Below are positions 6,252 to 27,240 of a DNA stretch of 28,278 nucleotides, one piece after another. The position numbers and the translations under genes were made by a program. Below the pieces are notes generated by a model. The model did not search any database. It was not told where the DNA came from and was given only the letters and a program-made list of their open reading frames with translations. Numbering within the stretch: the stretch's first letter is position 1; each line of letters opens with the position of its first letter. The stretch is from Candidatus Micrarchaeota archaeon (GTDB taxonomy: Archaea; Micrarchaeota; Micrarchaeia; Anstonellales; Bilamarchaeaceae), in contig CAZYGF010000001.1 in the NCBI GenBank assembly GCA_964647575.1, positions 1-28,278 on the forward strand. Reading direction: 5' to 3'.

Positions 6252-8075
6252 TCAATTCACCTTCATCGCCAGGAAGCTCTGGCTCGAGAACTGCTGCTCC
6301 AGCGTGAACCTGCTATCCGGACCGAGTGCGGTGAGCTTGGCCTGTATCTGGTCCCCGCTAAACGTTTTCAGGCAGCTCTGGTCGATTATCGCATATTCGT
6401 AGCCGTATTTCTTCAGGAACGCATAGTTGCCGTCCAGGCTGTCGTTTATGGACTGCGCCTTGTAGTCGTTCACTTCCTTTACCCATGCGTAGCCGGCTTT
6501 GTCCACGCCATCGGCGAACACGTCGTTCATGCAGAAACCGAAAACCTTCGTGTTCGCAGGAAGCCCCTTCAGCTTGATGTAGCCGGCAACCTGCTCATCC
6601 GATGCCCAGGAGGCGCCGGGCGGCCACTGCGACGTCTCCACGACGCCTTTCGGGTATGCGGCCGTGAAGAGCAGCGCGGCCACCAGGACCACCTTTGCCG
6701 CGAGCTCCATGCCCTTCCGGTTCTTATCGGTGTACTCCAGCACTTTCACAGCGCCATATCCCGCCAGGATGGCGACCGGTATGGCCAGGAACACCCAGAA
6801 GCGGTGCGGCATCATCTTGAACGGCAGGGCATTGCCTTCCACTCCCACCATGCAAAAGACAAACCAAAGCAGAAGCGCAACCTGGAGCCAGCGATCTTCA
6901 CCAGCCCTCGCCTTCCTGACGGCAACCACTATGCCGAGCAGCAGCAACCCGCTCACCGCCAGCCCCCAGCCGGTCGGCTGGTCCATCTTGGAGGCGAGCG
7001 GGGCATCGAGGAAGTCATTCGGGCCGTAAATGACGCCGCCGCTCGTGTCCGGAGTCTTCTCAGTCACGAAACCGAGGCTCAGCCCCATCTGGTTCAAAAT
7101 GCCGCCCATGCCGTACATCGCTAACATCGGGCCCCAAAACAACAGCAAGGCGAGTGCAAGCGCCAGCAAAGGCACAGCGGCCGAATCCTTAAGGGCGGCT
7201 GCCTTGTCGCCGCTGGCCAGTATGGCCGGCAGCCTTACCGAGCCGACGTAAAGCACCACCATGATGAATATTATGCCAGCCACCGAAGGCTGGACCATCA
7301 GCACTGCGCCCAGCGTGAGCGCTGAAATCAGGGTAAGCGCCCTATCGCCACCGCGCAGGACCCTCTCAAGGAAATAAAACGCCGGAAAGACCAGCACCAT
7401 GGCCAGCGTCTGGGCCCATATGAAATGGCTCATTAAAGACGGCAAAACGGCGATGATGAACGTGGCCCAGAGCGCCACTCTCCCTTCGAACCTTGTCCTG
7501 ACCCAGCAATAGAACAGCGGTATCGTGAGGCTGACCAGGAGGGCGTTGAAGAACTTGAGCGTGAACTGGAGCGAGCCGGTATCCAGCTGGAAAAGCAGCC
7601 CCAGCAGGACATCGAAGAAAGGCGGGTAGGGAGCCAGGTAATGTATGAGCTCCGGGTTTGGCAGGATGTACGTGCTGTATATGGAGACGTACCTGACGGC
7701 CGCGGCGTGGCTCCAGGGGTCGTCATCCTCGAGCCACGGATAGTTCAGTGCCCCGGAAACATAGACGTAGAAGTGTATGAAGAAAAGCAGCAGCACTATC
7801 GCCCAGCCCCGGTCTATCCTGGGCAGCCTGGGCGCGATATCCCCTTTCCTCGCTGCCAGCACCACCAGGGCCAGCGCCACGGCCCCATAGACGTACCATG
7901 AGGAAAGCGAAAGGAAACCGAACACGACAGCCAATGGGACAAAGGCGGCGATTCCGGTGCCTGCCCAGAGGAAGAGCGCAGACATGTCGTCCTCCTCCTT
8001 GATGCCAAGCAGCCTCCAGACTGCGAATCCCAGCCCCACGCTCATGAAAGCAAGATAGATCAGCTGTTCCAACAT
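6252..8075 (-). CDS. Polytopic membrane protein, probable GT-C-fold glycosyltransferase
   Basis: More than 12 predicted TM segments, an acidic EDDDPWSH motif in the first large loop, YPPFF, HRFW and a soluble C-terminal domain (LKKYGYEYAIID). No WWDYG motif. Confidence 0.7.
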   Translation of the reverse strand: MLEQLIYLAFMSVGLGFAVWRLLGIKEEDDMSALFLWAGTGIAAFVPLAVVFGFLSLSSWYVYGAVALALVVLAARKGDIAPRLPRIDRGWAIVLLLFFIHFYVYVSGALNYPWLEDDDPWSHAAAVRYVSIYSTYILPNPELIHYLAPYPPFFDVLLGLLFQLDTGSLQFTLKFFNALLVSLTIPLFYCWVRTRFEGRVALWATFIIAVLPSLMSHFIWAQTLAMVLVFPAFYFLERVLRGGDRALTLISALTLGAVLMVQPSVAGIIFIMVVLYVGSVRLPAILASGDKAAALKDSAAVPLLALALALLLFWGPMLAMYGMGGILNQMGLSLGFVTEKTPDTSGGVIYGPNDFLDAPLASKMDQPTGWGLAVSGLLLLGIVVAVRKARAGEDRWLQVALLLWFVFCMVGVEGNALPFKMMPHRFWVFLAIPVAILAGYGAVKVLEYTDKNRKGMELAAKVVLVAALLFTAAYPKGVVETSQWPPGASWASDEQVAGYIKLKGLPANTKVFGFCMNDVFADGVDKAGYAWVKEVNDYKAQSINDSLDGNYAFLKKYGYEYAIIDQSCLKTFSGDQIQAKLTALGPDSRFTLEQQFSSQSFLAMKVN

Positions 8076-8124
8076 CTCTTCTCCCCATTGGCAGTCTCTG
8101 CTGCATTTTTATGCCCCCAAGCTG

Positions 8125-8130
8125 TTTAAA
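8125..8130 (+). promoter_or_regulatory. TATA-like box TTTAAA
   Basis: 22 nt upstream of ATG 8153, in a divergent gap. Confidence 0.45.
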
Positions 8131-8152
8131 GGCTTACATGCGATACCAATCC

Positions 8153-9064
8153 ATGCGAATTATCGTCACTGGAGGGGCAGGATTCATAGGCTCCCATCTC
8201 GTGGACAAACTTGTTTCCGAAGGTGCGGATGTGCTCGTCATAGACGACCTTTCCACAGGCAGAAAGGAGCAGGCCAATCCCAAGGCCCGCCTGGTCAGGA
8301 AGGACATACGCACGGACATATCGGCCGAACTTAGGGGTGCCGATGCCGTGTTCCATCTGGCCGCCGACCCGGAAGTCCGCAGGAGCGCGACCGAGCCAGG
8401 GCACGGCTTTGACATAAACGTCCGCGGCACCTTCAGCGTGCTGGAAGCATGCAGGAAAAGCGACGTGAAGCGCATCATCCTTGCCTCAACATCCACCGTC
8501 TACGGGGAGGCCAGGAAAATCCCCACACCAGAAGACCACCCCTGCATACCGGTCAGCAATTACGGCGCCAGCAAGCTCGCAGGCGAGGCATACGTGGCAT
8601 CGTACGCCGGGTCCTACGGCCTCAAGGGCACATCGCTCAGGTTCGCCAACATCTTCGGCGAGAGGAGCTCGCATGGCGTGATGTTCGATTTCTACCATAA
8701 GCTCAAAAAAACCCCGGAAAAGCTCGAGATACTTGGGGACGGGAAGCAGGACAAATCATACCTCTACGTGTCCGATTGCGTGGATGCCATGCTTACCGCC
8801 TGGACAAAGCAGAAGGCGCCATACGACGTCTTCAACGCGGGCAGCAGGGACCGCATCACCGTGGAATCCCTTGCCCGCCTCATGTGCGGCATCATGGGGG
8901 TTGAGCCTGAATTCTTCTACACAGGCACCAAGCGCGGCTGGACCGGAGACGTGCCGCTCATGCTCCTCGACGTCTCAAAACTGGAGGGGTTGGGATGGAA
9001 ACAGAAGGTCGGGTTCAAGCAGGGCATGGAGAGATACGTGCGCTGGCTGTCTTCCTCCAGGTGA
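8153..9064 (+). CDS. NAD-dependent epimerase/dehydratase (UDP-glucose 4-epimerase-like extended SDR)
   Basis: TGGAGFIG, HLAA, STSTVYG, YGASK (YxxxK), SYLYVSD. Start placed at ATG 8153. Confidence 0.9.
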   Translation: MRIIVTGGAGFIGSHLVDKLVSEGADVLVIDDLSTGRKEQANPKARLVRKDIRTDISAELRGADAVFHLAADPEVRRSATEPGHGFDINVRGTFSVLEACRKSDVKRIILASTSTVYGEARKIPTPEDHPCIPVSNYGASKLAGEAYVASYAGSYGLKGTSLRFANIFGERSSHGVMFDFYHKLKKTPEKLEILGDGKQDKSYLYVSDCVDAMLTAWTKQKAPYDVFNAGSRDRITVESLARLMCGIMGVEPEFFYTGTKRGWTGDVPLMLLDVSKLEGLGWKQKVGFKQGMERYVRWLSSSR

Positions 9065-9068
9065 GCGC

Positions 9069-9866
9069 ATGAGGGTCGTGGAAAGCATGAGGTGGTTCCT
9101 GTCCATTCCGTTTTACCCAGCCATCCCGTTCTCCGACCGTGCCCGCCTCGCCTACTACTACCTCAAATCCCTGCTCAACCGTTTCATCCTCCGGTTGAAG
9201 CCGTCAAACAGGCGCCTTAGCATATCCTACGCAGGCGAACCGCTTTATTTCAGGGACAACTGGTTCGACCCCCGCTCGGTCTATACGGTCTTCAGCAATG
9301 ATTATACCTCGCTGGACAATGGCATATTCGCCGGCCTGGGCACCTTCATCGACGTAGGCGCCAACGCCGGTTTCATCTCCCGCTGCGCGCGGCGTGCATC
9401 CCCCGGCTGCCGGATAATCTGCTTCGAACCGCTGCAGGAGAACACAGAGCTGTGCCGGCTGAACAACCCACATGCAGTGGTGGAGGCATGCGGAGTCGGC
9501 TCATCCAACGGCCCGAAGGAACTGCTGGTAGACGAGTGCGGCTTCATGGCCTCGAGCATCTGTTTCAGCTACCGCCAGGCAAAGAGGACCGTTCTGACCA
9601 CGACGCTTGACTCATACCTCAAAAAGCCCCAGACGATAGACCTTCTCAAGATTGATGTCGAGGGCATGGAAGCAGAGGTCCTTGCCGGAGCCAAACGGGT
9701 GCTCCCCGGAGTCCGGAGGGTCGTCGCCGAGGTGCATTCCAACGCGCTCCTCAGCCAGTTTTCCATCGCGATGAAGGGCTCCGGCTTCGAGGAAAACCGC
9801 ACCGCAGCCATCGGCAAGGAGACTTACATCACGGATTGGCGCAATGCGAGGTTTAAAACACGGTGA
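9069..9866 (+). CDS. FkbM-family SAM methyltransferase
   Basis: IDVGANAG, CFEP, LLKIDVEGME. Start placed at ATG 9069, just after the epimerase stop; the ORF-track extension from 8733 overlaps the epimerase. Confidence 0.85.
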   Translation: MRVVESMRWFLSIPFYPAIPFSDRARLAYYYLKSLLNRFILRLKPSNRRLSISYAGEPLYFRDNWFDPRSVYTVFSNDYTSLDNGIFAGLGTFIDVGANAGFISRCARRASPGCRIICFEPLQENTELCRLNNPHAVVEACGVGSSNGPKELLVDECGFMASSICFSYRQAKRTVLTTTLDSYLKKPQTIDLLKIDVEGMEAEVLAGAKRVLPGVRRVVAEVHSNALLSQFSIAMKGSGFEENRTAAIGKETYITDWRNARFKTR

Positions 9867-11016: not shown

Positions 11017-11051
11017 ACTTCGCCGAGGGCATAATTTTTAATTACATTTGA

Positions 11052-11086
11052 GATAACCTTTTATCGGAGAAACCTACTCTTGGAGG
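11052..11086 (+). promoter_or_regulatory. Promoter/RBS of the NeuB operon: TTTTAT (11059-11064) inside palindrome GATAA-CCTT-TTATC, and GGAGG at 11082-11086
   Basis: Read directly from the AT-rich 77-nt intergenic gap. Confidence 0.5.
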
Positions 11087-11093
11087 GACTAGG

Positions 11094-12200
11094 ATGGCTA
11101 GACCAATCATACATCTGGGAAAATACAGCATATCCGAGGATTCGCCCTGCTTCGTAATCGCGGAGATAGGCCACAACCACCAGGGGAACCTGGACCTGGC
11201 CCGGAAAATGATTGATGCTGCGGCCCAGGCCGGAGCCAATGCCGTCAAGTTCCAGAAAAGGTCCAAGGACCTTTTCACCGCAGAGATGTACAACCGGCCT
11301 TACGACAATGAGAACAGCTTCGGCAAGACCTATGGCGCGCACCGGGAAGCCCTTGAATTCGGCGAATCCGAGTACAAGGCGCTGAAGGCCCATGCGGAGA
11401 GCCTCGGCCTGGTCTTCTTCGCCACGCCATTCGATATAAAAAGCGTAGAGTTCCTGGAAAAAATAGGGGTGCCTGCCTATAAGATAGCTTCCGCCTGCAT
11501 AACCGACATCCCGCTTATAGAGCACGTCGCAAAAAAAGGCAAGCCAATCTTCCTTTCACTCGGCACAGCAACGCTGGAAGACGTGGACCGGGCGTATAAG
11601 TGCGTCAAGGAGTACCGTGTCCCGCTATGCCTGCTCCACTGCGTGGCCGCCTATCCGATGATGAACTATGAGGAAGCCAACCTCAACGTGATCCATACAT
11701 TGAAGGAGCGCTACCCGGACGCGTTAATCGGATTCTCCAGCCATGAAAGCGGCATCGTGCTACCGGTCGTGGCGTACATGCTCGGCGCGAGGGTCGTGGA
11801 GAAGCATTTCACCCTGAACCGCGCGATGAAAGGGACCGACCAGCAGTATTCGCTTGAGCCGCAGGGGCTTACGAAGATGGTCCGTGACCTGAACCGCATC
11901 CGCGAAGCCCTGGGCGACGGCAAAAAGGTGGTACAGCCCTCGGAACTCGATGCGAAAAAGAAAATGGGGAAGAGCATCTTCGCCAGGACCCGCATACCCA
12001 AGGGTTCGGTGGTCTCTCCGGAAATGATAACTTTCAAGAGCCCCGGCACCGGCCTTCCCCCCTACCTTGTGGACGATGTCCTCGGGCGGACTGCAAACCG
12101 CGATATAGCCCCCGACGTTCCCATCGACTACTCCCTTCTCGGGCCCGAGAAAGTCAAAAAATTCGGCAAAGTTGACTGGGGTGCGTTGCTTGGGAAATGA
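11094..12200 (+). CDS. neuB: NeuB-family PEP-dependent ulosonate synthase with C-terminal SAF domain; resembles Neu5Ac-9-P/KDN-9-P synthases
   Basis: AEIGHNHQG, VKFQKR, RPY...SFGKTYGAH, KIAS, LHCVAAYP, GFSSHE, VEKHFTL, MKGTDQ. Confidence 0.92.
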   Translation: MARPIIHLGKYSISEDSPCFVIAEIGHNHQGNLDLARKMIDAAAQAGANAVKFQKRSKDLFTAEMYNRPYDNENSFGKTYGAHREALEFGESEYKALKAHAESLGLVFFATPFDIKSVEFLEKIGVPAYKIASACITDIPLIEHVAKKGKPIFLSLGTATLEDVDRAYKCVKEYRVPLCLLHCVAAYPMMNYEEANLNVIHTLKERYPDALIGFSSHESGIVLPVVAYMLGARVVEKHFTLNRAMKGTDQQYSLEPQGLTKMVRDLNRIREALGDGKKVVQPSELDAKKKMGKSIFARTRIPKGSVVSPEMITFKSPGTGLPPYLVDDVLGRTANRDIAPDVPIDYSLLGPEKVKKFGKVDWGALLGK

Positions 12201-12672
12201 TCCGGGCCGGATAAGCCTCGTCGCATTCGATTTTGACGGCGTCTTCACCGACAACCGCGTATATGTGGACCAGGACGGCCGGGAAAGCGTCTGCTGCAGC
12301 CGCTCCGACGGCATCGGCATCAGGAAACTGGACCGGGCCGGCATAAAATCAATAGTCATATCCGCTGAAACGAACCCGGTCGTGGAAAAGCGGTGCGCCA
12401 AACTGGGCATAAGGTGCGTGGCCGGCTGCAAAGACAAGCTTTCCGTATTGAAGGCGGCCATGGCCGAATCCGGAGTGGGGCGGGAATCCGTATGCTTCGT
12501 AGGCAACGACCTCCCGGATATAGAATGCCTCAGGTATGCCGGCCTTCCCGTTGCGGTCAGGGACAGCTGCCCAGAAGTGCTCGATGCTGCCAAGTACGTG
12601 ACATCCGCTCCAGGCGGCCGCGGGGCGGTGCGTGAAGTCTGCGACATGATTGTGAACGAGGGGAGAAAATGA
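12190..12672 (+). CDS. KdsC-like HAD phosphatase (ulosonate-phosphate phosphatase)
   Basis: FDFDGVFTDN, SRSDG, ISAE, KDK, VGNDLPD, GGRGAVREVCD. Probable TTG start at 12190 with GGGGTG upstream; alternatives 12172 and 12181. Confidence 0.85.
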   Translation: MGNDPGRISLVAFDFDGVFTDNRVYVDQDGRESVCCSRSDGIGIRKLDRAGIKSIVISAETNPVVEKRCAKLGIRCVAGCKDKLSVLKAAMAESGVGRESVCFVGNDLPDIECLRYAGLPVAVRDSCPEVLDAAKYVTSAPGGRGAVREVCDMIVNEGRK

Positions 12673-13457
12673 AAAAAATGTTCGATCTCAGCGGCAAAGT
12701 CGCTGTCGTGACAGGAGGCCTCGGCAACCTGGGGCAGGAATTCGTGAAGACGCTGCGGGATGCAGGTGCCAAAGTGGCCATACTGGAAATCCGGCCGGGC
12801 GCCTACAAGGACAAGGGCGTCATCGTGTGCGAAGCCGACATATCGGACAAGCTATCCTTATCCAGGGCGCTGGCCGATATAACCGCGCGGCTCGGCAAGC
12901 CATCCATACTGGTCAACTGCGCCGCCATCGACTCTCCGCCGGAATACGGCAGCGGAAAGAAAAGCGGGCTCATAGAGAGCGACGGGGCGGAAAAAACATA
13001 CGACAAGGTCATGGCAGTGAATGTCAAGGGCACGCTCCTTTGCTCACAGGTATTCGGCAATTTCATGGCTGAAAACGGCGGCGGCAGCATAATAAACATC
13101 TCATCCATCTATGGCGAGATTTCCCCGGACCAGCGGATATACCTCAGGAAGGGGAGGGAGCGGGAATTCTTCAAGCCCATAGCCTACTGCGTGAGCAAGG
13201 CCGCCATACCGAACATGACCCGTTATCTTGCCACATACTTCGCAGGCTCCAAAGTGCGGGTGAATACGCTCACATTCGGCGGGGTATTCAACAACCAGGA
13301 CCAGGAGTTCGTGGCCAACTACTCCTCCAAGGTGCCTCTCGGGAGGATGGCGAGAAAAGACGAATACAACGGCGCCGTCCTGTTCCTGGCGTCAGACGCT
13401 TCCTCCTACATGACAGGCTCCAACCTCGTGATAGACGGAGGATATACAAGCTGGTGA
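12669..13457 (+). CDS. Classical SDR oxidoreductase, similar in pattern to PtmA-like SDRs of nonulosonic acid clusters
   Basis: TGGLGNLG, NCAAID, IINISSIYG, YCVSK, VPLGRM, MTGSNLVIDGG. ATGA overlap with the phosphatase. Confidence 0.88.
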   Translation: MKKMFDLSGKVAVVTGGLGNLGQEFVKTLRDAGAKVAILEIRPGAYKDKGVIVCEADISDKLSLSRALADITARLGKPSILVNCAAIDSPPEYGSGKKSGLIESDGAEKTYDKVMAVNVKGTLLCSQVFGNFMAENGGGSIINISSIYGEISPDQRIYLRKGREREFFKPIAYCVSKAAIPNMTRYLATYFAGSKVRVNTLTFGGVFNNQDQEFVANYSSKVPLGRMARKDEYNGAVLFLASDASSYMTGSNLVIDGGYTSW

Positions 13458-14947
13458 TGACTATGGCAAAGCGGTTTTTCAACTTCATAGGCGGCGAGTG
13501 GAAGGACTCGGTTACCAAGAGGACCTTCGAGAAGAGGAACCCGGCCGATGCCAGCGAAGTTCTCGGCGTTTTTCCCCTCTCCGGCGCTGCCGATGTGGAG
13601 GCTGCCTGCCAGGCGGCGGGAAAAGCTTTCAAGGCATGGTCCAGCGTCACCCCGCCCGCGAGAGGGAAACTGCTTTTCGAAGCCGGGCGGCTGCTGGCTT
13701 CCAAGAAAGAGGAGCTGGCGCAGGTGCTGGTCAGGGAGACCGGCAAGACCACCAAGGAGGCGCTCGGAGAGGTCAATGCAGCCATAGACATGGCATACTT
13801 CATGGCCGGCGAAGGGAGGCGCCTCTACGGCGACGTGACGCACTCTGAGCTTCCGAACCGGTGGGCGCTGACCAAGCGCTGCCCAATAGGCGTATGCGGC
13901 ATAGTCACCCCGTGGAACTTCCCCATGTCGCTCATAAGCTGGAAGGTCTTCCCGGCGCTTATCTGCGGCAATGCCGTGGTCCTCAAGCCGGCCGAAGATG
14001 CACCCGAGACCGCGAACCGCATCGCAGAGATCCTGGCAGAGGCGGGCCTGCCGCCAGGCGTCCTGAACATCGTCCATGGGGCCGGCGAAGAGGCAGGCGA
14101 TGCGCTGGTGCGGAACGCAAACGTGAAGATGGTGTCGTTCACAGGGTCAAGCGAAGTCGGGAGGCGGATAGCCGCCATATGCGGGGAACGCCTAGCCAAG
14201 GTGTCGCTAGAGCTCGGGGGCAAGAATGCCGTCATAGTCATGGACGATGCTGATCTCGACCTGGCTGTCAGCGGGATAGTCAAAGGTGCCTTTACCGTGG
14301 CCGGGCAGCGTTGCACAGCCACAAGCAGGGCAATCGTCCACCGGCGCATCTACGACAAATTCATGGAGAAGCTCGTTGCAGAGACAAAACGGCTCAAGGT
14401 CGGCGCCGGCGGAAAAGACGGCACTGACGTATGCCCTGTCATCAACCGGAAGCAGCTGGAAAGGATTGCGAAATACGCGGAAACAGGCAAGAAGGAGGGC
14501 GCCAGGCTGGTGCTCGGCGGCCACGTCCTAAAGGAAGGCACGCACGCAAAAGGGTTCTTTTTCGAGCCTACCATATTCGGCGAAGTGCGGCCGGAGATGA
14601 CCGTGGCGAAGGAGGAGATATTCGGGCCTGTGCTCGCGGTCTTCAGGGCAGAGTCGCTCGAGCAGGCAATAGGGCTCCTGAACGACAGCGCCTATGGCCT
14701 GTCAGCATCCATATTCACAAAAGACATCAACGCCGCCCTTTCAGCCGTGGAAAGCTTCGAAACAGGCGTCTGCTACGTCAATGCCCCGACATTCGGCTCC
14801 GAGGTCCACCTCCCATTCGGCGGCATGAAAAAATCCGGCAACGGCCATCGCGAAGTGGGCAAGGCGGCGATTGAAGCGTTCTCAGACCTGAAGACGATAT
14901 ACCTGGACTATAGCGGGGTGATCCAGAATGCCCAGTTCAAAAAATAA
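13454..14947 (+). CDS. NAD(P)-dependent aldehyde dehydrogenase
   Basis: TPWNFP, KPAED, FTGS, LELGGKN (catalytic Glu), AGQRC (catalytic Cys), EEIFGP, PFGG. GTGA overlap with the SDR. Confidence 0.93.
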   Translation: MMTMAKRFFNFIGGEWKDSVTKRTFEKRNPADASEVLGVFPLSGAADVEAACQAAGKAFKAWSSVTPPARGKLLFEAGRLLASKKEELAQVLVRETGKTTKEALGEVNAAIDMAYFMAGEGRRLYGDVTHSELPNRWALTKRCPIGVCGIVTPWNFPMSLISWKVFPALICGNAVVLKPAEDAPETANRIAEILAEAGLPPGVLNIVHGAGEEAGDALVRNANVKMVSFTGSSEVGRRIAAICGERLAKVSLELGGKNAVIVMDDADLDLAVSGIVKGAFTVAGQRCTATSRAIVHRRIYDKFMEKLVAETKRLKVGAGGKDGTDVCPVINRKQLERIAKYAETGKKEGARLVLGGHVLKEGTHAKGFFFEPTIFGEVRPEMTVAKEEIFGPVLAVFRAESLEQAIGLLNDSAYGLSASIFTKDINAALSAVESFETGVCYVNAPTFGSEVHLPFGGMKKSGNGHREVGKAAIEAFSDLKTIYLDYSGVIQNAQFKK

Positions 14948-16835
14948 GCTCCTTTTCACCAATGGCGATTTTGAGAGGGCCCGGTCCCTGGCGATTGGAC
15001 AGGCTGAAAAACTGTCAATCATCGCAGATATGATCCGCTTCAATGCCCTCGCAGCCATAGTGCATGCGCGCTCCGGTCATATCGGCGCCTCCTTCAGTGC
15101 CATAGAGATCCTTGCGGTGCTGTACCACCACACGATGCGCCTGGATGCGCGCAAGCCAGGCCAGGCCGGGCGTGACATATTCATCCTGTCAAAAGGCCAT
15201 GCCGCCGCAGGCCAGTACGCGGCCCTGGCTTCCGCGGGGTTCATCCCAGAAGAGCGCCTCCTCAGCTTCAGGCAGTTCCGCGGCCTGCAGGGGCACGTGG
15301 ACGTATCCGTGCCCGGGGTGGACGCGAACACAGGGTCGCTTGGCATGGGTCTGTCCAAGGGCAAAGGATACGCCTGGGCCGCCAAGGCAGGAAAGACCGG
15401 CGCGTCGGTCTATGTTATGGTTGGCGATGGCGAGCTCCAGGAAGGGCAGAACTGGGAGGCAATCCAGTCAGCCCCGCACCTCAAGCTGGACAACCTCTAT
15501 CTCATAGTGGACCGGAACATGGTGCAGACGGACAGGGAAGTGCACAGGATACTGGACATATCCCCGCTTGACGAGAAGCTCAGGTCTTTCGGCTGGGATG
15601 TCATGACCATCGATGGTAATGACGTGGCTCAGGTCCTTGATGCCCTGGGCCGCAAGGCCGTAAGCGGAAAGCCCAAGGCTATTATCGCGAATACAATCAA
15701 GGGCAAAGGTGTATCCTTCATGGAGCACCCGGCCGTGCTGTCGCGCGACGGCGTCTACCGCTGGCACGGCAGCATACCGAAAGAGGAGGAATACCGCCTG
15801 GCTTACGATGAGCTGGCCCACAGGCTGATGGCACATCGGGATTTCACGTCATCCGGAATCTCTTTCCCGCAGTTCTTCTGCCCGGATGCTGTGCCGGCGG
15901 CTTTCAAGGGAAAGGCGCTGAAAAAGGCGTTTTCCGATTCGCTTGTGGAACTGGCGGAAAAACAGCGCCAGATGGTGGTGATGGATGCAGACCTGGCAGA
16001 GGACTGCGGCCTCAGGGATTTCGAAAACCGCCATCCGGACCGTTTCATCGAGGTCGGCATAGCCGAGCAGGACATGGTTTCCATGGCCGGCGGCCTGGCG
16101 CTGTGCGGCAAGCTGCCCATCGTCAATACGTACACCGCATTCCTCACTTCGCGCTCCAATGAGCAGATTTTCAACAACGCCTCGGAGAAGACGAAAATCA
16201 TCTATGTGGGCCATCTCGCCGGGCTGCTCCCTGCCAAGCCTGGCAAATCCCACCAGGGGCTGCGGGACATCTCCCTGCTCAGGGCGGTGCCCGACATCCT
16301 CCTCGGGGCTCCGTGCAACGCCGCGGAACTGAAGCAGATGATGGACTACTTCGTGCTCGGGACCGGCAGGAACTGCTACCTGCGGCTTGAGCACTTCCCC
16401 CCCAGGAACGACGTCCCCCTTCCGAAAGGCTACCGGCTCGGATTAGGGAAAGGCGCCATATTGGCAGAGGGCAAAGATGCAGCCGTGATAGCATACGGGT
16501 CGCTCATGCTCTCAGAGGCGCTGTCAGCCGCTGAAGAGCTAAAAAAAGACGGCATCAGGGTCCGGGTGATAAACCTCCCTTGGCTGAACAACATAGACGC
16601 CAGATGGCTGCTCAAGGCCATCGATGGCGTAAAGCATGTCTTTTGCATCGAGAACCATTCGCTCACAGGCGGCCAGGGGGAAGAGGTCCTGCGGCTGGCA
16701 GGGCCAGGGCACGTAGTCCACATCCTGGGCGTGGCCGGCTTCGGGCAGTCCGGGGAAGCCGAGGACATCCTGCGCAACTACTCGCTTGATTATAAATCCA
16801 TAAGCGCCAGAATCGCTGCGGAGGTAAGGAAATGA
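14928..16835 (+). CDS. ThDP-dependent transketolase-family enzyme, single chain, with a divergent substrate site
   Basis: SGHIG, SKGH, QGH, GSLG, GDGELQEG...DRN, WHG, DADLA, GIAEQ. The canonical GEDGPTHQ reads AKPGKSHQ. Confidence 0.88.
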   Translation: MPSSKNKLLFTNGDFERARSLAIGQAEKLSIIADMIRFNALAAIVHARSGHIGASFSAIEILAVLYHHTMRLDARKPGQAGRDIFILSKGHAAAGQYAALASAGFIPEERLLSFRQFRGLQGHVDVSVPGVDANTGSLGMGLSKGKGYAWAAKAGKTGASVYVMVGDGELQEGQNWEAIQSAPHLKLDNLYLIVDRNMVQTDREVHRILDISPLDEKLRSFGWDVMTIDGNDVAQVLDALGRKAVSGKPKAIIANTIKGKGVSFMEHPAVLSRDGVYRWHGSIPKEEEYRLAYDELAHRLMAHRDFTSSGISFPQFFCPDAVPAAFKGKALKKAFSDSLVELAEKQRQMVVMDADLAEDCGLRDFENRHPDRFIEVGIAEQDMVSMAGGLALCGKLPIVNTYTAFLTSRSNEQIFNNASEKTKIIYVGHLAGLLPAKPGKSHQGLRDISLLRAVPDILLGAPCNAAELKQMMDYFVLGTGRNCYLRLEHFPPRNDVPLPKGYRLGLGKGAILAEGKDAAVIAYGSLMLSEALSAAEELKKDGIRVRVINLPWLNNIDARWLLKAIDGVKHVFCIENHSLTGGQGEEVLRLAGPGHVVHILGVAGFGQSGEAEDILRNYSLDYKSISARIAAEVRK

Positions 16836-17548
16836 AGGTCCTCGCACTGATACTCGCCCGGGGCGGCTCGACCCGCATACCTAAGAAGAACATCGTCATG
16901 CTCGGAGGGCGCCCCCTCATCTTCTACACCATCGACGCTGCAAAGAGGTCAAAGCGCATAAACCGGATAATAGTTTCCACAGACAGCCGGGAAATCGCCG
17001 ACGTGGCCGTGAAATGCGGGGCAGAGGCGCCTTTCCTCAGGCCCGTGGAGATATCGAAATCAGATTCCACAGAGCTCGAAGCGTTCGAGCATGCGCTTGG
17101 CTGGCTCAAGGAGAACGAGGGCTATGTGCCCGACCTGATAGTCAAGCTCTTCCCGACATCGCCGTTCAGGAAGGCCGAATCAATAGACAAGGCGGTTGAG
17201 CTCATGATTGCCAATCCGGATGCGGACAGCGTCCGCTCAGTATGCCTCTGCAAGGAGCACCCCTACAAGATGTGGGTTATCGAGAACAAGCGCCTCAGGC
17301 CATTTGTGCCGTGGGAGAAGAAGCCGAAGGAGGCCCACACGCTCTCCTACCAGCTCCTGCCGCCGGTCTATGTGAACAACGCAAGCATCGATGTGACTAA
17401 ACCAGCAACGATATTCAATAAAAAATCCGTGACCGGAAGGGAGATCGTACCCTACCCGATGGAAGAATCGGAATCGCTCGACATCAATACCCGCATTGAC
17501 CTGGAACTCGCAAAAATCCTCATCGCGAAACCGCAGAAAGCCCGCTGA
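16832..17548 (+). CDS. neuA: CMP-ulosonic acid synthetase (acylneuraminate cytidylyltransferase family)
   Basis: ARGGSTRIPKKN, VSTD, PFLRP, PTSPFR, SLDI. ATGA overlap with the transketolase and GGAGGT RBS. Confidence 0.9.
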   Translation: MKVLALILARGGSTRIPKKNIVMLGGRPLIFYTIDAAKRSKRINRIIVSTDSREIADVAVKCGAEAPFLRPVEISKSDSTELEAFEHALGWLKENEGYVPDLIVKLFPTSPFRKAESIDKAVELMIANPDADSVRSVCLCKEHPYKMWVIENKRLRPFVPWEKKPKEAHTLSYQLLPPVYVNNASIDVTKPATIFNKKSVTGREIVPYPMEESESLDINTRIDLELAKILIAKPQKAR

Positions 17549-18784
17549 CTATACCACTTTCACTTCGGGCAGCGGCATGATGAACTTCCCGCCCTCATCC
17601 GCGAACCATTTCTCCTTCTTCGTTATCTCTTCGAAGTAGCTCCACGCCAGGATTAGTATGTAATCCGGCCTTTCCCTGTCTTCCCTCAGCCTTTTTGGCT
17701 GGAATATGGGTATGTGCACCCCCGGCATCACCCTGCCATACCTTTCCGGCGACTCATCAACCACATAATCAATCAAATCCTTCCCAAGGTTGCAGTAATT
17801 CAGCAGTATGGTGCCTCTTCCCGGCGCCCCGTAGGCGATTATCTTCTTGTTTTCGTATTTTAATTTTTTTATGAGGCCGGCAAGCTCCTTCTTTTTCCGT
17901 TCCACATTTTCCGCGAATTTCCTGTATCCCTTTTCGTCGTGCAGGCCCAGCGACTCTTCCAGGCGGATCAAATCGGCCACGGAGCGGTCCACATTATTTT
18001 TCCCGATTTTTTTCGCATGGACGCTTATGGAACCGGAATGTATCGGTATCCGTTTTACCCGTGTTATCTGCATCCCGTACCTGTTCATCAGGGCCTGGAG
18101 GGCCTTCACCGAGTAGTAGCACAGGTGCTCATGGTATATGGTATCGTACTGCACCTTCTCGATAAGGTCCACGATGTAGTGCACCTCAAAAACGAAAACG
18201 CCATCGTCTTTCAGCAATGTTTGTATGCCCTTCATGATGTCGTCTATGTCATCTATGTGCGCGAATACGTTATTCGCCAGCAGCATGTCCGCATTGCCCT
18301 TCTCGCTCCTGAGTTTTTCTGCAGTGCGTTCAGAGAAGAAATCGGTTATCACTTCCAACCCCTTTGCCTTCGCGACTTTCGCTATGTTCTCCGCCGGCTC
18401 AAATCCTATGCCCTTTACCCCCAGGTCCTCCAATGGCTTTAACAGGACGCCGTCATTGCATCCTATCTCCACAGCCAGCGAATCCCCGCCCAGCCCATAT
18501 TCCGAAACGAGCTCCCGTGCGTGCCGTTCGAAATGCTCCCGCAACGTTTTAGTGACCGATGACAGGTACCTGTAGTCCATGAACAGTATTTCCGGCGGCA
18601 CGATATCCATTATCTGCACCAGGGAGCAGGCCCTGCAGAAATAAACATCCAGCGGGAATTTCTGTTCCTGGGGTATCTGCTCCTCTTTTATGAATCCGCC
18701 TGCCAGCGGGACGTTTCCCAATGAAAGGAATCTTACGACATCCTTGCCATGGCAGACCCTGCAGTCCTCTCTATGGTTTAACAT
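17549..18784 (-). CDS. NDP-hexose 3-C-methyltransferase (TylC3/TcaB9/NovU family)
   Basis: Zn site CRVC...CRAC, EIGCNDG, NNVFAHI, IYHEH, YGAPGRG, PGVHIPI, LAWSY. Confidence 0.88.
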   Translation of the reverse strand: MLNHREDCRVCHGKDVVRFLSLGNVPLAGGFIKEEQIPQEQKFPLDVYFCRACSLVQIMDIVPPEILFMDYRYLSSVTKTLREHFERHARELVSEYGLGGDSLAVEIGCNDGVLLKPLEDLGVKGIGFEPAENIAKVAKAKGLEVITDFFSERTAEKLRSEKGNADMLLANNVFAHIDDIDDIMKGIQTLLKDDGVFVFEVHYIVDLIEKVQYDTIYHEHLCYYSVKALQALMNRYGMQITRVKRIPIHSGSISVHAKKIGKNNVDRSVADLIRLEESLGLHDEKGYRKFAENVERKKKELAGLIKKLKYENKKIIAYGAPGRGTILLNYCNLGKDLIDYVVDESPERYGRVMPGVHIPIFQPKRLREDRERPDYILILAWSYFEEITKKEKWFADEGGKFIMPLPEVKVV

Positions 18785-19643
18785 AAGGTTTCCTCTTCCA
18801 GGCGTAGGTCGTCATGTGCTGCGGATACGCTGTTTTCGTCTCGTACCCATATTCAGGGAGCAACTTCTCCAGCGCGTATCGTGTATACTTCCCGTCCACT
18901 ATGTGGTTGGATGCTATCGCCAGGTGGGCATCGCTCTGCGCCAAAATCCGTTTCGCTCCCTTTACGGTCTCTATCTCGGCCCCTTCGATATCCATCTTTA
19001 TGAAATCCACCTTCTCTATGCCCAGCGCCCTGAGCTCTTCGTCCAGGGTGACCACCGGCACCTCGATGACGCTTTTGGCCGCGCTTGGATTCGGGATTAT
19101 CGGGCTTTTCGACTTGTCCAGGAAAAGCGTGGACGTTCCCAGCCCCTTATTGTCGAACTTCATCTTCCCGGATTTGCTCCAGGTCGCCTTGTTCAGCAAT
19201 ATGACGTTGTGCACGCCGTTCATTTCTAGATTCCTGGCTGTCCTTTCATAATTGACCGGGTCCGGCTCGAACGCTATCACCTTCCCGTTTTTCCCGGCGA
19301 GTTTTGCCGCATATATGGTGAAGATGCCTATGTACGCCCCGCAGTCCACTATGGTGTCTCCTTCCGTGATATTGTATGCGCCCAAATCCCCCTTTAGGAG
19401 GTGGGGGATGCGGCTCCAGAACTCATCCAGGTTCCACATGTCCTTGGGGCATTTCAACGAGATGCCGTTGGAGAACCGGTATTCGAAATAATTGTCGCCC
19501 CCGGCAATCTCGCACGGGATGTTGTGCGTATGATAATAGATGGGGTATAGCTTAAGCCGCAGGAAATCCTTGGGCGCGCATTCCGGGCAATACTGGAAAA
19601 ACCTGAAAAATACCGCATTTTCCATCTTTGTAAGTATGCCCAT
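18771..19643 (-). CDS. FkbM-family SAM methyltransferase
   Basis: VDCGAYIG, AFEPDP, FIKMDIEGAE. GGTGA RBS. Confidence 0.87.
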   Translation of the reverse strand: MGILTKMENAVFFRFFQYCPECAPKDFLRLKLYPIYYHTHNIPCEIAGGDNYFEYRFSNGISLKCPKDMWNLDEFWSRIPHLLKGDLGAYNITEGDTIVDCGAYIGIFTIYAAKLAGKNGKVIAFEPDPVNYERTARNLEMNGVHNVILLNKATWSKSGKMKFDNKGLGTSTLFLDKSKSPIIPNPSAAKSVIEVPVVTLDEELRALGIEKVDFIKMDIEGAEIETVKGAKRILAQSDAHLAIASNHIVDGKYTRYALEKLLPEYGYETKTAYPQHMTTYAWKRKPYVKP

Positions 19644-22351: not shown

Positions 22352-23005
22352 ATGGCATTAAGACAGACTCTTAAAAGCGTGCTATGCCCCTTTTACGAAC
22401 CTTTCATACCTAGTTATGAAACCGAACTAAGAAACGCCGTGGCTGGCTGCAAAAGCCTGCTGGACGTCGGCTGCGGTTCTTCCTCTCCCATAAAGGCCTT
22501 CTCGAAAAGCCTATACTGCGTCGGAGTGGACCTTTTCGAACCCAGCATCAAGGAGAGCAGGAAACAAAAAATCCATAACATGTGTTACGTGCTGGATGTC
22601 CTCGACATAGATAAGCGTTTCAAGGAAAAATCCTTCGATTGCGTCGTGGCCCTGGGGGTCATAGAGCACCTGGATAAAAAAGCCGGTATCGCGCTATTGA
22701 AAAAAATGGAGAAAGTCGCTAAGAAAAAAATAATCATCACAATGCCCAACGGCTTCGTGCCCCAGGGCGTTCATTTCGGCAATCCCCTCCAGGTCCACAG
22801 GTCCGGCTGGACCGTTGAAGAGATGAGGCGGTACGGATATGACGTGATCGGCATAAGCGGGTGGAAACCCCTCCGTGGGGAGGCCGGCCATATAAAATAT
22901 CAGCCCGATACGTTCTGGGCTGGCGTTTCCCTCCTGTCAAAACCAATCGTGAGAAACATGCCCGAACATGCCTTTGAACTGCTGTGCATCAAGCAGCTCT
23001 CATGA
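22352..23005 (+). CDS. Class I SAM-dependent methyltransferase
   Basis: LLDVGCG, GVDL, SFDCVVALGVIEHL, ITMPN. Confidence 0.85.
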   Translation: MALRQTLKSVLCPFYEPFIPSYETELRNAVAGCKSLLDVGCGSSSPIKAFSKSLYCVGVDLFEPSIKESRKQKIHNMCYVLDVLDIDKRFKEKSFDCVVALGVIEHLDKKAGIALLKKMEKVAKKKIIITMPNGFVPQGVHFGNPLQVHRSGWTVEEMRRYGYDVIGISGWKPLRGEAGHIKYQPDTFWAGVSLLSKPIVRNMPEHAFELLCIKQLS

Positions 23006-23057
23006 GCCTGCCGGCAGCAATCAGGCCGTGTATCGCATTTTTATTCGTGCGGGTCTA

Positions 23058-24464
23058 ATGAAAAACCAACAATGTCCCGAGGTGGATCCGATAACCAAAT
23101 CAAGGCCAAAAGTGAGACTTCTATACCCCCCAGACATCACCACCGTTGAGTTCGGTGTCCTCTTCTCCCTCTATCTCAAGGCGTTGGAGAAGCTTTCAAA
23201 AGAAGGTTTTGATGTAGGGGTAATAGGCCGTATGCCGGAGTCTGCTTTCAGGAAAACCTACGACACCTCCCTGTCATATCTGGACTTCTTCAAATCCGGA
23301 CAATTCTCAAGGAAACTCTCGCAAAAAGAGGTGGAAGATGCGGAGACTTATATGGGGCTCCCCTTCAACTACATCCTCTTTGCCAACCAGAAACGGTGGC
23401 ACTGGCTGAGCAAGCCCGGCCTGTACGAGAAAGCCGCCAGGGAAGTGTATGCATGGAAAGATGCCCTGAAAGACACGGACGTCATCCTCCCCACCCTGGA
23501 CAACCTGTTTTTCTTGTATAGCGCCGAGCGGGTCGCTGACCGGATGGGCGTGAAAATCATCAAGCCGATCCGCGGGCGCCTGGTCAATGACAGCCTGATT
23601 TTCTGGGACAAGGACAATCTCCCCATCTACTACAAGACGGATTACGGCGGCGATATCGCGGAGAAATTCACTGCAAGGGCATTAAGCCAGAAAACCAACG
23701 TGAAAATCGCCGAAACGGCCATAATCAAGACGGAAAACCTGCGCAAGCGGCTGATGGACGTGCCCCGAAAATTCAAGCTGTTGTTCCAGAGCAACAGGGC
23801 CGGTGTGGACGCGGATATCCCTGCATTCATCCCGAAATACAAGCGCCTCATATCAATGGGCCTGAGGCTCCTTGTCTACCCGAAGCTGCATGCCCTTTTC
23901 TTCGAGCGCCCCAAAAAAGAGGCGTATTTCCTATTTCCGCTCCATTACGAATGGGAAGCGCAACTGGCATTCCGTGAGCCTTTCATAAGCCAGCTCGGCC
24001 TGGCGAAGCAAATCTCGGAAATCCTGCCCAGCAACACGTACCTCTATATCAAGGTCCACCCGCATTGGAAAAACGCAGACCAGAGCCTGCGGGCGGTGTA
24101 CGGGCTGAGGAAAGCGAAGAATGTCCGTTTCATCCACCCGGAAGAGAATACCACCGACCTGGTCAGGAATTCCCTCGGGGTCATCATAATCAACTCCACC
24201 GTCGGCTATGAGGCCATCCTCCTGAAAAAGCCGCTGGTAGTGCTGGGGCATGAGGCGTATAAGGAGGCCGCGATAGACATGAAGGACCTGGCCGAGCTCC
24301 CGAAAACGCTCGCAAGGATAAAAAGCGGGGAATACAAGGTCGACGCAACGCATTACGAAAACTTCCTGAAAAAATACGCTGGCAACATCACCTCCACCAA
24401 TGACCCGGAGAAATTCACCCACGAGCTGAAGAACGTCATACTCTGGGTTCTTCAAAACGGCTGA
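23058..24464 (+). CDS. KpsS/KpsC-like (Capsule_synth family) protein, candidate CMP-ulosonate transferase
   Basis: FLFPLHYEWEAQ, YIKVHPHW, INSTVGYEAILLKKPLVVLG. Start placed at ATG 23058; alternatives GTG 23082 and 23112. Confidence 0.72.
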   Translation: MKNQQCPEVDPITKSRPKVRLLYPPDITTVEFGVLFSLYLKALEKLSKEGFDVGVIGRMPESAFRKTYDTSLSYLDFFKSGQFSRKLSQKEVEDAETYMGLPFNYILFANQKRWHWLSKPGLYEKAAREVYAWKDALKDTDVILPTLDNLFFLYSAERVADRMGVKIIKPIRGRLVNDSLIFWDKDNLPIYYKTDYGGDIAEKFTARALSQKTNVKIAETAIIKTENLRKRLMDVPRKFKLLFQSNRAGVDADIPAFIPKYKRLISMGLRLLVYPKLHALFFERPKKEAYFLFPLHYEWEAQLAFREPFISQLGLAKQISEILPSNTYLYIKVHPHWKNADQSLRAVYGLRKAKNVRFIHPEENTTDLVRNSLGVIIINSTVGYEAILLKKPLVVLGHEAYKEAAIDMKDLAELPKTLARIKSGEYKVDATHYENFLKKYAGNITSTNDPEKFTHELKNVILWVLQNG

Positions 24465-25671: not shown

Positions 25672-25686
25672 CCCACGGCTGGCATA

Positions 25687-25693
25687 TTAAAAA
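25687..25693 (+). promoter_or_regulatory. TATA-like box TTAAAAA
   Basis: 22 nt upstream of the gmhA ATG at 25716. Confidence 0.45.
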
Positions 25694-25715
25694 ACTCACC
25701 CTCCTAAATCCAACC

Positions 25716-26294: not shown

Positions 26295-26300
26295 CGTCAT

Positions 26301-27236: not shown

Positions 27237-27240
27237 TGCC

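Follow-up and report, generated by a model that had tools for sequence, protein, structure and literature searches.

The 9-phosphate route to Kdn and Neu5Ac, of the Bacteroides thetaiotaomicron and vertebrate type, employs a Kdn-9-P synthase, a Kdn-9-P phosphatase, and a CMP-Kdn synthetase. A different kind of ulosonic acid processing is found in the Shewanella Kdo8N pathway, in which KdnB oxidizes the C8 hydroxyl of Kdo to an aldehyde and KdnA transaminates that aldehyde. Canonical transketolase (EC 2.2.1.1) of the short mammalian/split type is represented by human TKT (PDB 3MOS/4KXU). The ulosonic diacid Dha has been reported in bacteria (PMC4019464), and how it is made and activated has yet to be established (PMC12168206, PMC3355719).

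Here, we analyzed a locus that shares features with each of these systems. The window, that is, the whole stretch of 28,278 nucleotides, comes from a DPANN-type archaeon. It contains six co-directional open reading frames (ORFs) at 11094-17548, each overlapping the next. All six ORFs are present, and profile searches returned the families that the sequence-only reading had assigned to them. The features are as follows:

11017..11093, plus strand: upstream spacer, A+T-rich, with a Shine-Dalgarno-like GGAGG; possible archaeal promoter region
11094..12200, plus strand: NeuB-type ulosonate synthase with a C-terminal SAF domain (PF03102, 263 bits over the full model; PF08666)
12190..12672, plus strand: KdsC/YrbI-family C0-type HAD phosphatase (TIGR01670, 111.9 bits, cut-off 106.95)
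12669..13457, plus strand: classical NAD-type short-chain dehydrogenase, SDR (PF13561, PF00106)
13454..14947, start possibly ATG 13457, plus strand: NAD(P)-dependent aldehyde dehydrogenase, ALDH (PF00171, 577 bits)
14928..16835, plus strand: transketolase-like (TK-like) ThDP enzyme with N, Pyr, and C domains in one chain (PF00456, PF02779, PF02780)
16832..17548, plus strand: CMP-ulosonate synthetase, NeuA/PseF-like, a CTP_transf_3 cytidylyltransferase (PF02348, 89 bits)
22968..24464, plus strand: KpsS/KpsC-like (Capsule_synth) protein (PF05159, 51 bits)

The genes are tightly packed. Of the overlaps proposed from the sequence (11, 4, 4, 20, and 4 nt), those of 4 nt (HAD/SDR), 20 nt (ALDH/TK), and 4 nt (TK/NeuA) were recovered as claimed. 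The 11-nt NeuB/HAD overlap needs a TTG start at 12190 in an ORF that opens at 12172, and the SDR/ALDH overlap is 4 nt from GTG 13454 or 1 nt from the adjacent ATG 13457, the equivalent of which is the ALDH start called in a 91%-identical relative (L001). At its downstream end, the unit does run flush against a convergent gene, with the NeuA stop at 17548 abutting the stop of a C-methyltransferase gene (17549-18784). This gene is one of the branched/methylated-sugar genes that surround the cluster.

The proposal that the unit has its own promoter and ribosome-binding site holds in part. The 77-nt spacer has an A+T content of 60%, compared with 43% for the window, and is also kept in L001, while GGAGG sits 8 nt upstream of the NeuB ATG. 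These features are compatible with a transcription and translation start, the promoter being putative. On the other side, the genes upstream of NeuB point the same way as the six-gene unit, and a sigma-70 scan is inapplicable because the host is archaeal. In two relatives (L002 and L004), a divergent gene lies directly upstream of NeuB, an arrangement that favors NeuB as the start of the unit.

To assess conservation, we collected 80 genome loci with a TK-like gene, 38 of which were informative and lay outside an Ignavibacteria clade, and counted neighbors within 10 kb. At these 38 loci, NeuB was present in 35, ALDH and NeuA in 32 each, the SDR in 25, and the HAD phosphatase in 18. The order NeuB-(HAD)-SDR-ALDH-TK-NeuA was found in L001, L002, L004, L006, and L007, and SDR-ALDH-TK together with NeuB and NeuA in Micrarchaeota, Hadarchaeota, Helarchaeota, Methanoregulaceae, and many bacterial phyla. 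The survey thus bears out the expectation that the SDR-ALDH-TK triad is conserved as a unit with NeuB and NeuA. Blind picks made from the SDR side gave the same picture, with NeuB-HAD-SDR-ALDH-TK in 3/3, including Helarchaeota and Vicinamibacterales contigs; SDR orthologues from archaeal and bacterial phyla share 55-68% identity. With this set found in dozens of unrelated genomes, chance is not a credible explanation for the arrangement. In two loci (L006 and L066), the module has a second NeuB/NeuC/NeuA set, of the canonical kind, as its neighbor, suggesting that the product of the module is a different one. A literature search found no published description of this module.

Like the Kdn/Neu5Ac route, the module has a NeuB-family synthase, a KdsC/YrbI-type C0 HAD directly after it, and a CTP_transf_3 CMP-transferase. 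It differs in the co-conserved SDR, ALDH, and TK-like genes that stand between the phosphatase and the CMP-transferase, in an optional phosphatase, and in proteins that score under the equivalog cut-offs for NeuB, PseI, KDN-9-P phosphatase, and PseF. The synthase scored 304 bits against NeuB_NnaB and 264 bits against PseI, its nearest solved structures being NeuAc synthetase (6ncs), PseI, and N. meningitidis NeuB; its orthologues in the module of other genomes scored 330-780 bits. NeuA scored 135 bits against PseF (TIGR03584, cut-off 206). The HAD protein has a visible DxD motif (FDFDGVFTDN) and scored 119 bits against the KdsC model and 83.5 bits against the KDN-9-P phosphatase model (cut-off 180), below the cut-off in both cases. 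We regard it as a candidate ulosonate omega-phosphate phosphatase and an optional part of the module. Its presence in fewer than half of the loci (18 of 38), and an internal deletion in L001, the nearest relative, indicate that the 9-phosphate route, on which the sequence-only reading had relied, is not obligatory.

In the SDR, the sequence TGGLGNLG and the acidic residue that closes beta-2 (the Glu of VAILEIRP) indicate NAD(H) as the cofactor, and the catalytic S/Y/K set is complete. An NAD-type enzyme would suit an oxidation. The ALDH motifs WNFP, ELGGKN, and GQRCTA are intact, and its top NCBIfam match is alpha-ketoglutaric semialdehyde dehydrogenase (554 bits, cut-off 770). The family scores of both enzymes are generic and all lie under equivalog cut-offs, which counts against the scheme described below. 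At three loci in Bacteroidota/Kapaibacteria (L051, L075, and L067), a class-III aminotransferase (PF00202) occupies the ALDH position. This replacement points to an aldehyde intermediate, as would be expected if the TK step left a terminal aldehyde.

The TK-like protein has the same three-domain architecture as human TKT, its nearest structure (263 bits), and scored 435 bits against NF004559 (cut-off 488). We surveyed its residues across 120 homologues, using human transketolase numbering. His37, His77, His110, His258, Lys244, Glu366, Asp155, Asn185, and Glu160/165 are invariant, so that, as in human TKT, all ThDP, metal, and catalytic residues are retained. Among these, the His37/His258 pair presumably holds the donor C1-OH. 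In contrast to human TKT, the phosphate-site positions are altered, with Arg318 replaced by V/L/A/K, Ser345 by D/S, His416 by L/Y, and Arg474 by I/H, and Asp424 is Pro in 119 of the 120 homologues. The family also has a new invariant PGKSHQ loop, and its substrate loop has gained a conserved Lys. In human transketolase, the five altered positions are listed around the X5P-ThDP adduct (PMC8016368). The retained His pair and the missing phosphate site would fit a ketol donor other than a sugar phosphate. Unlike canonical transketolase genes, the TK-like gene lies inside ulosonic acid clusters rather than with pentose-phosphate genes. In the Ignavibacteria/Melioribacter clade, a gene with the same altered residues stands alone among housekeeping genes, suggesting some role outside the module and counting against the scheme described below.

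Our leading interpretation, to which we assign a probability of roughly 0.45, is that the six genes are transcribed as a single unit and produce a chain-shortened ulosonic acid, activated with CMP, for a glycan at the cell surface. The starting aldose, the number of carbons in the chain, the product, and every reaction with its place in the sequence are inferred, as follows. NeuB would join PEP to an aldose or its phosphate (Man-6-P is one possibility), yielding a 3-deoxy-2-ulosonate, and the KdsC-type phosphatase, where present, would free the terminal CH2OH. The NAD-dependent SDR would then oxidize the penultimate carbinol to a ketone, creating a CH2OH-C(=O)- ketol tail. The TK-like ThDP enzyme, lacking a phosphate site, would cut off the C2 ketol unit to leave a terminal aldehyde. 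ALDH would turn this aldehyde into a second carboxylate, or, in the sister loci, the class-III aminotransferase would make an amine from it. Finally, NeuA would attach CMP, and the sugar would be transferred to the glycan by a KpsS-like enzyme.

This scheme, running from the NeuB product through the SDR ketol, C2 removal by TK, and the ALDH diacid to the CMP sugar, was first put forward in the sequence-only reading, and taken as a whole it is tentative, with somewhat less than an even chance of being right. The TK site changes, the aminotransferase swap, and the NAD-type SDR speak for it, and it assigns a role to each of the six genes. Against it stand eight Chloroflexota loci with NeuB-ALDH-NeuA-TK and without the SDR, near which no other dehydrogenase was seen. 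In these, either the ketol comes from an unlinked enzyme or the scheme is wrong at that step. That the phosphatase can be dispensed with also weighs against it. As in the Shewanella Kdo8N pathway, the distal end of a ulosonic acid would be tailored via an aldehyde, and the aminotransferase variant would end in a terminal amine. In contrast to the primary-alcohol oxidation of that pathway, the aldehyde would arise by ThDP-dependent C-C cleavage with loss of two carbons, and the enzyme families are SDR, TK-like, and ALDH or class-III aminotransferase.

With respect to stereochemistry, Fischer analysis agrees with the earlier claim that 8-keto-Kdn, viewed from C9, has the D-threo arrangement at C7/C6. 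In the nonulosonate pyranose, O6 is the ring oxygen, unlike in any transketolase donor known to us, which counts against the scheme. The predicted product belongs to the same class as Dha, the C7 3-deoxy-2-ulosaric diacids. With Kdn as the intermediate, it would be 3-deoxy-L-arabino-hept-2-ulosaric acid, with the L-arabino configuration of periodate-derived C7 sialic acid analogues, and not Dha, which is D-lyxo and would require an aldose of opposite configuration at the carbons becoming C5 and C6.

Chain cleavage could also precede condensation. In that case, the SDR would make a keto-hexonate or hexuronate-derived ketose, bearing a terminal ketol and, at the opposite end, a carboxylate, and TK would cleave it to a C4 aldehyde-acid (a tetruronic acid). 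NeuB would add PEP to give a 3-deoxy-heptulosaric acid directly, while ALDH would only clear the released glycolaldehyde; from D-tagaturonate, the product would be Dha. Four plus three carbons would yield a C7 diacid without shortening a ulosonate, the lost phosphate site and the Lys gained in the substrate loop would suit a carboxylate substrate, and the best NCBIfam matches of the SDR include gluconate 5-dehydrogenase (144 bits) and D-mannonate oxidoreductase (143 bits), albeit far under the cut-offs. We nevertheless consider this order unlikely. It gives no role to the phosphatase, which overlaps NeuB and occurs in nearly half of the loci, makes ALDH a mere scavenger despite its wide retention, and leaves the omega-type aminotransferase in its place unexplained. 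Moreover, NeuB would need the TK-made aldehyde, and an ALDH or aminotransferase acting on that aldehyde would destroy the pathway.

It is very unlikely, in our assessment, that the ThDP enzyme catalyzes synthesis rather than cleavage, like DXS or branched-sugar E1-like enzymes, adding C2 to a sugar aldehyde or ketone to give a longer or branched ulosonic acid, with the SDR reducing the new ketone after chain extension or C-branching. The transketolase reaction is reversible, the neighbors include the branched/methylated-sugar genes and the C-methyltransferase, and the TK-like protein also matches DXS models (TIGR00204, 194 bits), but this score is far below the cut-off and the nearest structures are transketolases. 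The His pair suited to a donor that carries CH2OH does not vary, no module enzyme would produce the acceptor aldehyde, and ALDH, or the aminotransferase substituting for it, would have no role if the ThDP enzyme consumed the aldehyde.

An ordinary metabolic transketolase supplying sedoheptulose-7-P for the window's heptose genes (GmhA-, kinase-, GmhB-, and nucleotidyltransferase-like), or erythrose-4-P/ribose-5-P, with a plain Kdn/Neu5Ac-like product and the SDR and ALDH as passengers, would account for those genes and for the solitary Ignavibacteria gene, and a commonly stated view is that DPANN archaea acquired transketolase to serve the pentose phosphate pathway (PMC8407392), but we give it hardly any credence: the phosphate-site residues and Asp424 are altered across the family, the protein falls under NCBIfam transketolase cut-offs, the heptose genes, unlike NeuB, ALDH, and NeuA, are not kept with TK at other loci, and SDR orthologues lie in the same module whenever sampled (3/3).

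Returning to the chain-shortened, CMP-activated product, the KpsS/KpsC-like protein is a tentative candidate for its transferase. A homologue lies less than 8 kb from the module in the archaeal relatives L001, L002, and L004; in bacterial loci, a TagF-like or unknown 430-470-aa protein directly after TK takes its place. If the scheme is true, the module would make a shortened, doubly acidic sugar in archaea and many bacterial phyla.

The operon is formed by six ORFs on the plus strand:

11094-12200, plus strand, NeuB-type synthase
12172/12190-12672, plus strand, HAD phosphatase of the KdsC/YrbI type
12669-13457, plus strand, SDR
13454-14947, plus strand, ALDH
14928-16835, plus strand, transketolase-like ThDP enzyme (TK-like)
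16832-17548, plus strand, NeuA, the CMP-ulosonate synthetase

The sequence-only reading, which proposed that an ulosonate is shortened by the SDR, the TK-like enzyme and the ALDH, had described all six genes as overlapping their neighbours. The ORFs lie where it placed them, but two overlaps depend on the choice of start codon. The phosphatase ORF opens at 12172, and an 11-nt overlap with NeuB requires a TTG start at 12190; at the SDR/ALDH junction, an ATG at 13457, as called in the closest relative, L001 (TK-like protein 91% identical), would give a 1-nt overlap, versus the GTG at 13454. A convergent ORF (17549-18784) abuts the operon end at 17548, as had been noted. The operon had also been credited with its own promoter and ribosome-binding site. 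The 77-nt spacer 5' of NeuB contains GGAGG, is rich in A+T (60% versus 43%) and is conserved in L001; a promoter there is plausible. A divergent gene precedes NeuB in two other relatives, L002 and L004. Within the operon, a scan for promoters and terminators found none above shuffled expectation, using a bacterial consensus that does not apply to an archaeal host.

The six products were compared with Pfam and NCBIfam models. NeuB matches PF03102 (263 bits, residues 39-278, model positions 1-241) and carries the C-terminal SAF/antifreeze-like domain of NeuB-type synthases (PF08666, 38 bits). It scores below the equivalogs for N-acetylneuraminate synthase (TIGR03569, 303.8 against a cut-off of 399.65) and pseudaminate synthase (TIGR03586, 264.2 against 340.25); its substrate cannot be assigned. 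The phosphatase passes the KdsC/YrbI subfamily model TIGR01670 (111.9 against 106.95) with HAD motif I (DxD) intact in FDFDGVFTDN, and lies below the specific equivalogs for KdsC (119 against 208) and KDN-9-P phosphatase (83.5 against 180). The SDR is of the classical type, with TGGxGxxG and the S/Y/K residues intact; a Glu at the end of beta-2 indicates NAD(H), and its NCBIfam matches show a weak resemblance to gluconate-5- and mannonate dehydrogenases. The ALDH covers PF00171 (576.6 bits, model positions 1-461), retains GQRCTA with the catalytic Cys, ELGGKN with the general-base Glu and the Asn of WNFP, and falls below the KGSADH equivalog (554 against 770). NeuA matches PF02348 (CTP_transf_3; 88.9 against a gathering score of 22.6) and is below the PseF equivalog (134.7 against 205.7). 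Since no curated equivalog cut-off is reached, an exact function cannot be read for any of the six products.

The TK-like protein has the three-domain transketolase architecture (PF00456, PF02779 and PF02780). It falls below the transketolase equivalogs NF004559 (434.8 against 488) and TIGR00232 (194.5 against 682) and the DXS equivalog TIGR00204 (193.9 against 465.95). Among solved structures, human transketolase (263 bits) and a split transketolase from a bacterium come closest, and PDB matches to DXS are confined to the Pyr and C domains. The exact sequence of the window protein is not on a database record, and relatives were used instead.

We aligned 120 TK-like homologues with human TKT. 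The cofactor and catalytic residues His37, His77, His110, Lys75, Lys244, His258, Glu366, Asp155, Asn185 and Glu160/165 are invariant. Four residues that bind the sugar phosphate in normal transketolases are replaced (Arg318 by V/L/A/K, Ser345 by D/S, His416 by L/Y and Arg474 by I/H), and Asp424, which normally reads a substrate hydroxyl, is Pro in 119 of the 120; the window protein has K, D, L, H and P at Arg318, Ser345, His416, Arg474 and Asp424. His takes the place of Gln428, as it does in yeast and E. coli transketolase, and the loop PA.PGKSHQ has gained a Lys that is nearly invariant. This pattern also holds across 80 genome loci. All five replaced residues are listed in the active site around the X5P-ThDP adduct of human transketolase (PMC8016368). 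From this pattern we infer that the enzyme keeps ketol-transfer chemistry, including the His pair that holds the donor CH2OH, and that its substrate is not a sugar phosphate, though it may be otherwise anionic.

The TK-like protein has thousands of homologues. In a genome scan with one genome per species, 596 encoding stretches were found, and the best 80 loci were analyzed by comparing all their ORFs with the window proteins (phmmer) and placing the transketolases on a neighbour-joining tree. Sufficient flank was available at 47 loci; nine belong to one Ignavibacteria/Melioribacter clade and were set apart, leaving 38 as the informative set. Within 10 kb of the TK-like gene, these 38 loci encode NeuB in 35, ALDH in 32, NeuA in 32, SDR in 25 and the phosphatase in 18. 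The synthase, phosphatase and CMP-synthetase frame is that of the known route to Kdn- or Neu5Ac-type sugars. With a phosphatase in fewer than half of the loci, the 9-phosphate route is not obligatory.

The sequence-only reading would fall if the inserted genes were not conserved as a unit, and in the survey it does not fall. NeuB, SDR and ALDH are all present in 22 of the 38 loci, and three contigs picked blind from the SDR side all show NeuB-HAD-SDR-ALDH-TK. Among five relatives with TK-like proteins 91% to 46% identical, NeuB, ALDH and the CMP-transferase lie beside TK in every case, and four of them have the SDR as well. SDR orthologues (55-68% identical) occur in Micrarchaeota, Hadarchaeales, Nitrososphaerota, Helarchaeota, Fibrobacteria, Vicinamibacterales and Auribacterota. 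No curated family covers the module, we found no described pathway that contains the inserted SDR-ALDH-TK set, and a literature search for transketolase in nonulosonic or sialic acid synthesis, or for ulosaric acid, did not find the module; one joint mention keeps the topics separate.

Outside the operon, the window is a glycan locus with glycosyltransferases, FkbM-type and C-methyltransferases, 4,6-dehydratase-like enzymes, a KpsS/KpsC-like Capsule_synth protein and a heptose-pathway-like gene set. The following features were recorded:

1122-1904, minus strand, DTD2-type D-aminoacyl-tRNA deacylase; best named relatives, at no more than 83% identity, in Candidatus (I)ainarchaeum and Micrarchaeota MAGs
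4894-6161 and 24541-27729, heptose-pathway-like genes: GmhB-like HAD, nucleotidyltransferase, GDP-mannose-dehydratase-like, SIS isomerase, PfkB kinase and cytidylyl/adenylyltransferase-like
6252-8075, minus strand, 607-aa ORF that lacks a Pfam match and lies midway through the glycan locus
17549-19643 (minus strand), 8733-9866 (plus strand) and 22352-23005 (plus strand), methyltransferases: a TylC3-type sugar C-methyltransferase (Methyltransf_13/14), two of FkbM type and another SAM methyltransferase

The relatives of the deacylase identify the host as a DPANN-type archaeon. The gene content suggests that a (6-deoxy-)heptose occurs in the same glycan, which is probably heavily methylated or branched. 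The ORF at 8733-9866 overlaps that at 8111-9064; it probably begins near 9070 instead, where its L001 counterpart starts.

A chain-shortening scheme would give every gene of the operon a role, and we put its probability at about 0.45. The synthase would form an omega-phospho-ulosonate, and the phosphatase would free its terminal CH2OH. The NAD-dependent SDR would then oxidize the penultimate carbon to a ketone, the TK-like enzyme would remove the CH2OH-CO unit and leave an aldehyde, the ALDH would convert this to a second carboxylate, and NeuA would activate the product. Our own Fischer analysis agrees with the earlier remark on D-threo configuration: C7/C6 of 8-keto-Kdn, read from C9, have the arrangement of fructose and xylulose. 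The loss of Asp424 would also make sense, since the pyranose uses O6 as its ring oxygen.

Variants of the module bear on this scheme. In three Bacteroidota/Kapaibacteria MAGs, a class-III aminotransferase (PF00202) takes the position of the ALDH:

L051:8093-15599 (also L075 and L067), TagF-like, NeuA, TK, class-III aminotransferase, SDR, HAD and NeuB

Class-III aminotransferases typically act on terminal aldehydes and amines, and the alternation of the two enzymes would be expected if both used one shared aldehyde. This points to an aldehyde that is carried on the sugar, is not consumed by NeuB and is made late, most simply by the TK step. The predicted product of the variant is a terminally aminated, shortened ulosonic acid. 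In two further loci, a second, canonical NeuB/NeuC(Epimerase_2)/NeuA set lies less than 10 kb from the module (L006:17298-19970 and L066:1199-4093). The module product therefore differs from ordinary Neu5Ac/legionaminic-type sugars, and each of the two organisms apparently produces two distinct ulosonic acids.

The phosphatase was never found without the SDR among the compared loci. In L001, a deletion of about 390 bp has removed the central part of the phosphatase gene (L001:3553-3664, compared with window 12190-12672); what is left of it between NeuB and SDR is about 45 nt at the 5' end and about 40 nt at the 3' end. Since only these ends remain, the phosphatase is dispensable. Eight Chloroflexota loci have NeuB-ALDH-NeuA-TK-TagF-like-methyltransferase, without SDR and without phosphatase, and they are the main observation that the shortening scheme does not explain. 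No substitute dehydrogenase was found near them; the genes around them encode methyltransferases, glycosyltransferases, TagF-like proteins and an ABC protein, and a single locus has a 373-aa ORF without a Pfam match. L042, which is related to these loci, has a NeuC-type epimerase.

In the Ignavibacteria/Melioribacter clade (L023, L030, L085 and 18 further loci), the TK-like gene occurs by itself, surrounded by housekeeping genes (histidine phosphatase, sensor kinase, DinB-like polymerase, Memo and beta-eliminating lyase), with identical altered substrate residues. In bacterial loci with the module, TK is always followed by a Pfam-less protein of 430-470 aa (L007:11993-13297 and nine further loci) or a TagF-like Glyphos_transf protein, either of which is a candidate transferase or polymerase for the module product. 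In a Helarchaeota locus, the gene directly after TK encodes a 539-aa protein in which a CTP_transf_3 cytidylyltransferase is fused to a SAM methyltransferase domain (L089:14335-15954), and a separate NeuA is also present upstream.

Remodelling of the precursor is the rival that survives best, though we consider it improbable. Here the SDR would make a keto-hexonate, the TK-like enzyme would cleave it to a tetruronic acid, and NeuB with PEP would give the diacid directly. This would account for a carboxylate-friendly TK site and for the SDR's weak likeness to sugar-acid dehydrogenases, but offers no explanation for the phosphatase, the ALDH or the aminotransferase swap. Chain extension or branching by the ThDP enzyme is less probable again, as the ALDH would have no use. 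A housekeeping transketolase that feeds the heptose genes, or supplies S7P/E4P, deserves hardly any weight, being contradicted by the missing phosphate site and the conservation pattern, in which the heptose-pathway-like genes are not conserved with the module elsewhere. We also rejected alpha-keto-acid decarboxylation at ulosonate C1: the product would lack the anomeric C2 that NeuA needs for CMP activation, whereas NeuA and transferases are conserved along with the TK-like gene.

If the shortening scheme starts from Kdn, the product would, by our own Fischer analysis, be 3-deoxy-L-arabino-hept-2-ulosaric acid, with the configuration of periodate-derived C7 sialic acid analogues. Functionally, the closest parallel is the distal-end tailoring of Kdo to Kdo8N via an aldehyde. 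The sequence-only reading had likened the product to Dha. The two share the C7 ulosaric class, but Dha is D-lyxo, so that the Kdn-derived product would not be Dha; to make Dha, the module would have to start from an aldose configured oppositely at the positions that give rise to C5 and C6. Dha occurs in RG-II, prasinophytes and Acinetobacter haemolyticus LPS (PMC4019464), and its biosynthesis is listed as unknown in reviews of plant RG-II (PMC12168206, PMC3355719).

Taken at the level of gene content, the gene set appears to be a widespread, uncharacterised pathway to ulosonic acids in which both the tailoring module and the transketolase subfamily are new. More tentatively, and with the odds against it, it could be an unrecognised prokaryotic route to C7 3-deoxy-hept-2-ulosaric acids of the Dha class, with 7-amino analogues from the aminotransferase variant. 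Its core enzyme would be the first of the transketolase family to be specialised for removing two carbons from a nonulosonic acid that lacks phosphate and is possibly bound to CMP; the reaction would be an enzymatic counterpart of the periodate truncation of sialic acids.

Current annotations of the TK-like family read 'transketolase', 'transketolase C-terminal domain-containing protein' or 'DXS', and the 'transketolase' and 'DXS' labels are likely to mislead metabolic reconstructions. Because the sugar-phosphate site is missing, these genes ought not to be read as evidence for a non-oxidative pentose-phosphate or MEP pathway in streamlined archaea (compare PMC8407392). If the scheme is true, DPANN, Hadarchaeota and Asgard archaea, as well as many bacterial phyla, would display on their surfaces a new class of activated acidic sugars, namely dicarboxylic or terminally aminated C7 ulosonic acids. 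The module would then provide the first genetic handle on making Dha-type heptulosaric acids, and would broaden transketolase chemistry to include the tailoring of sugar acids that carry no phosphate.
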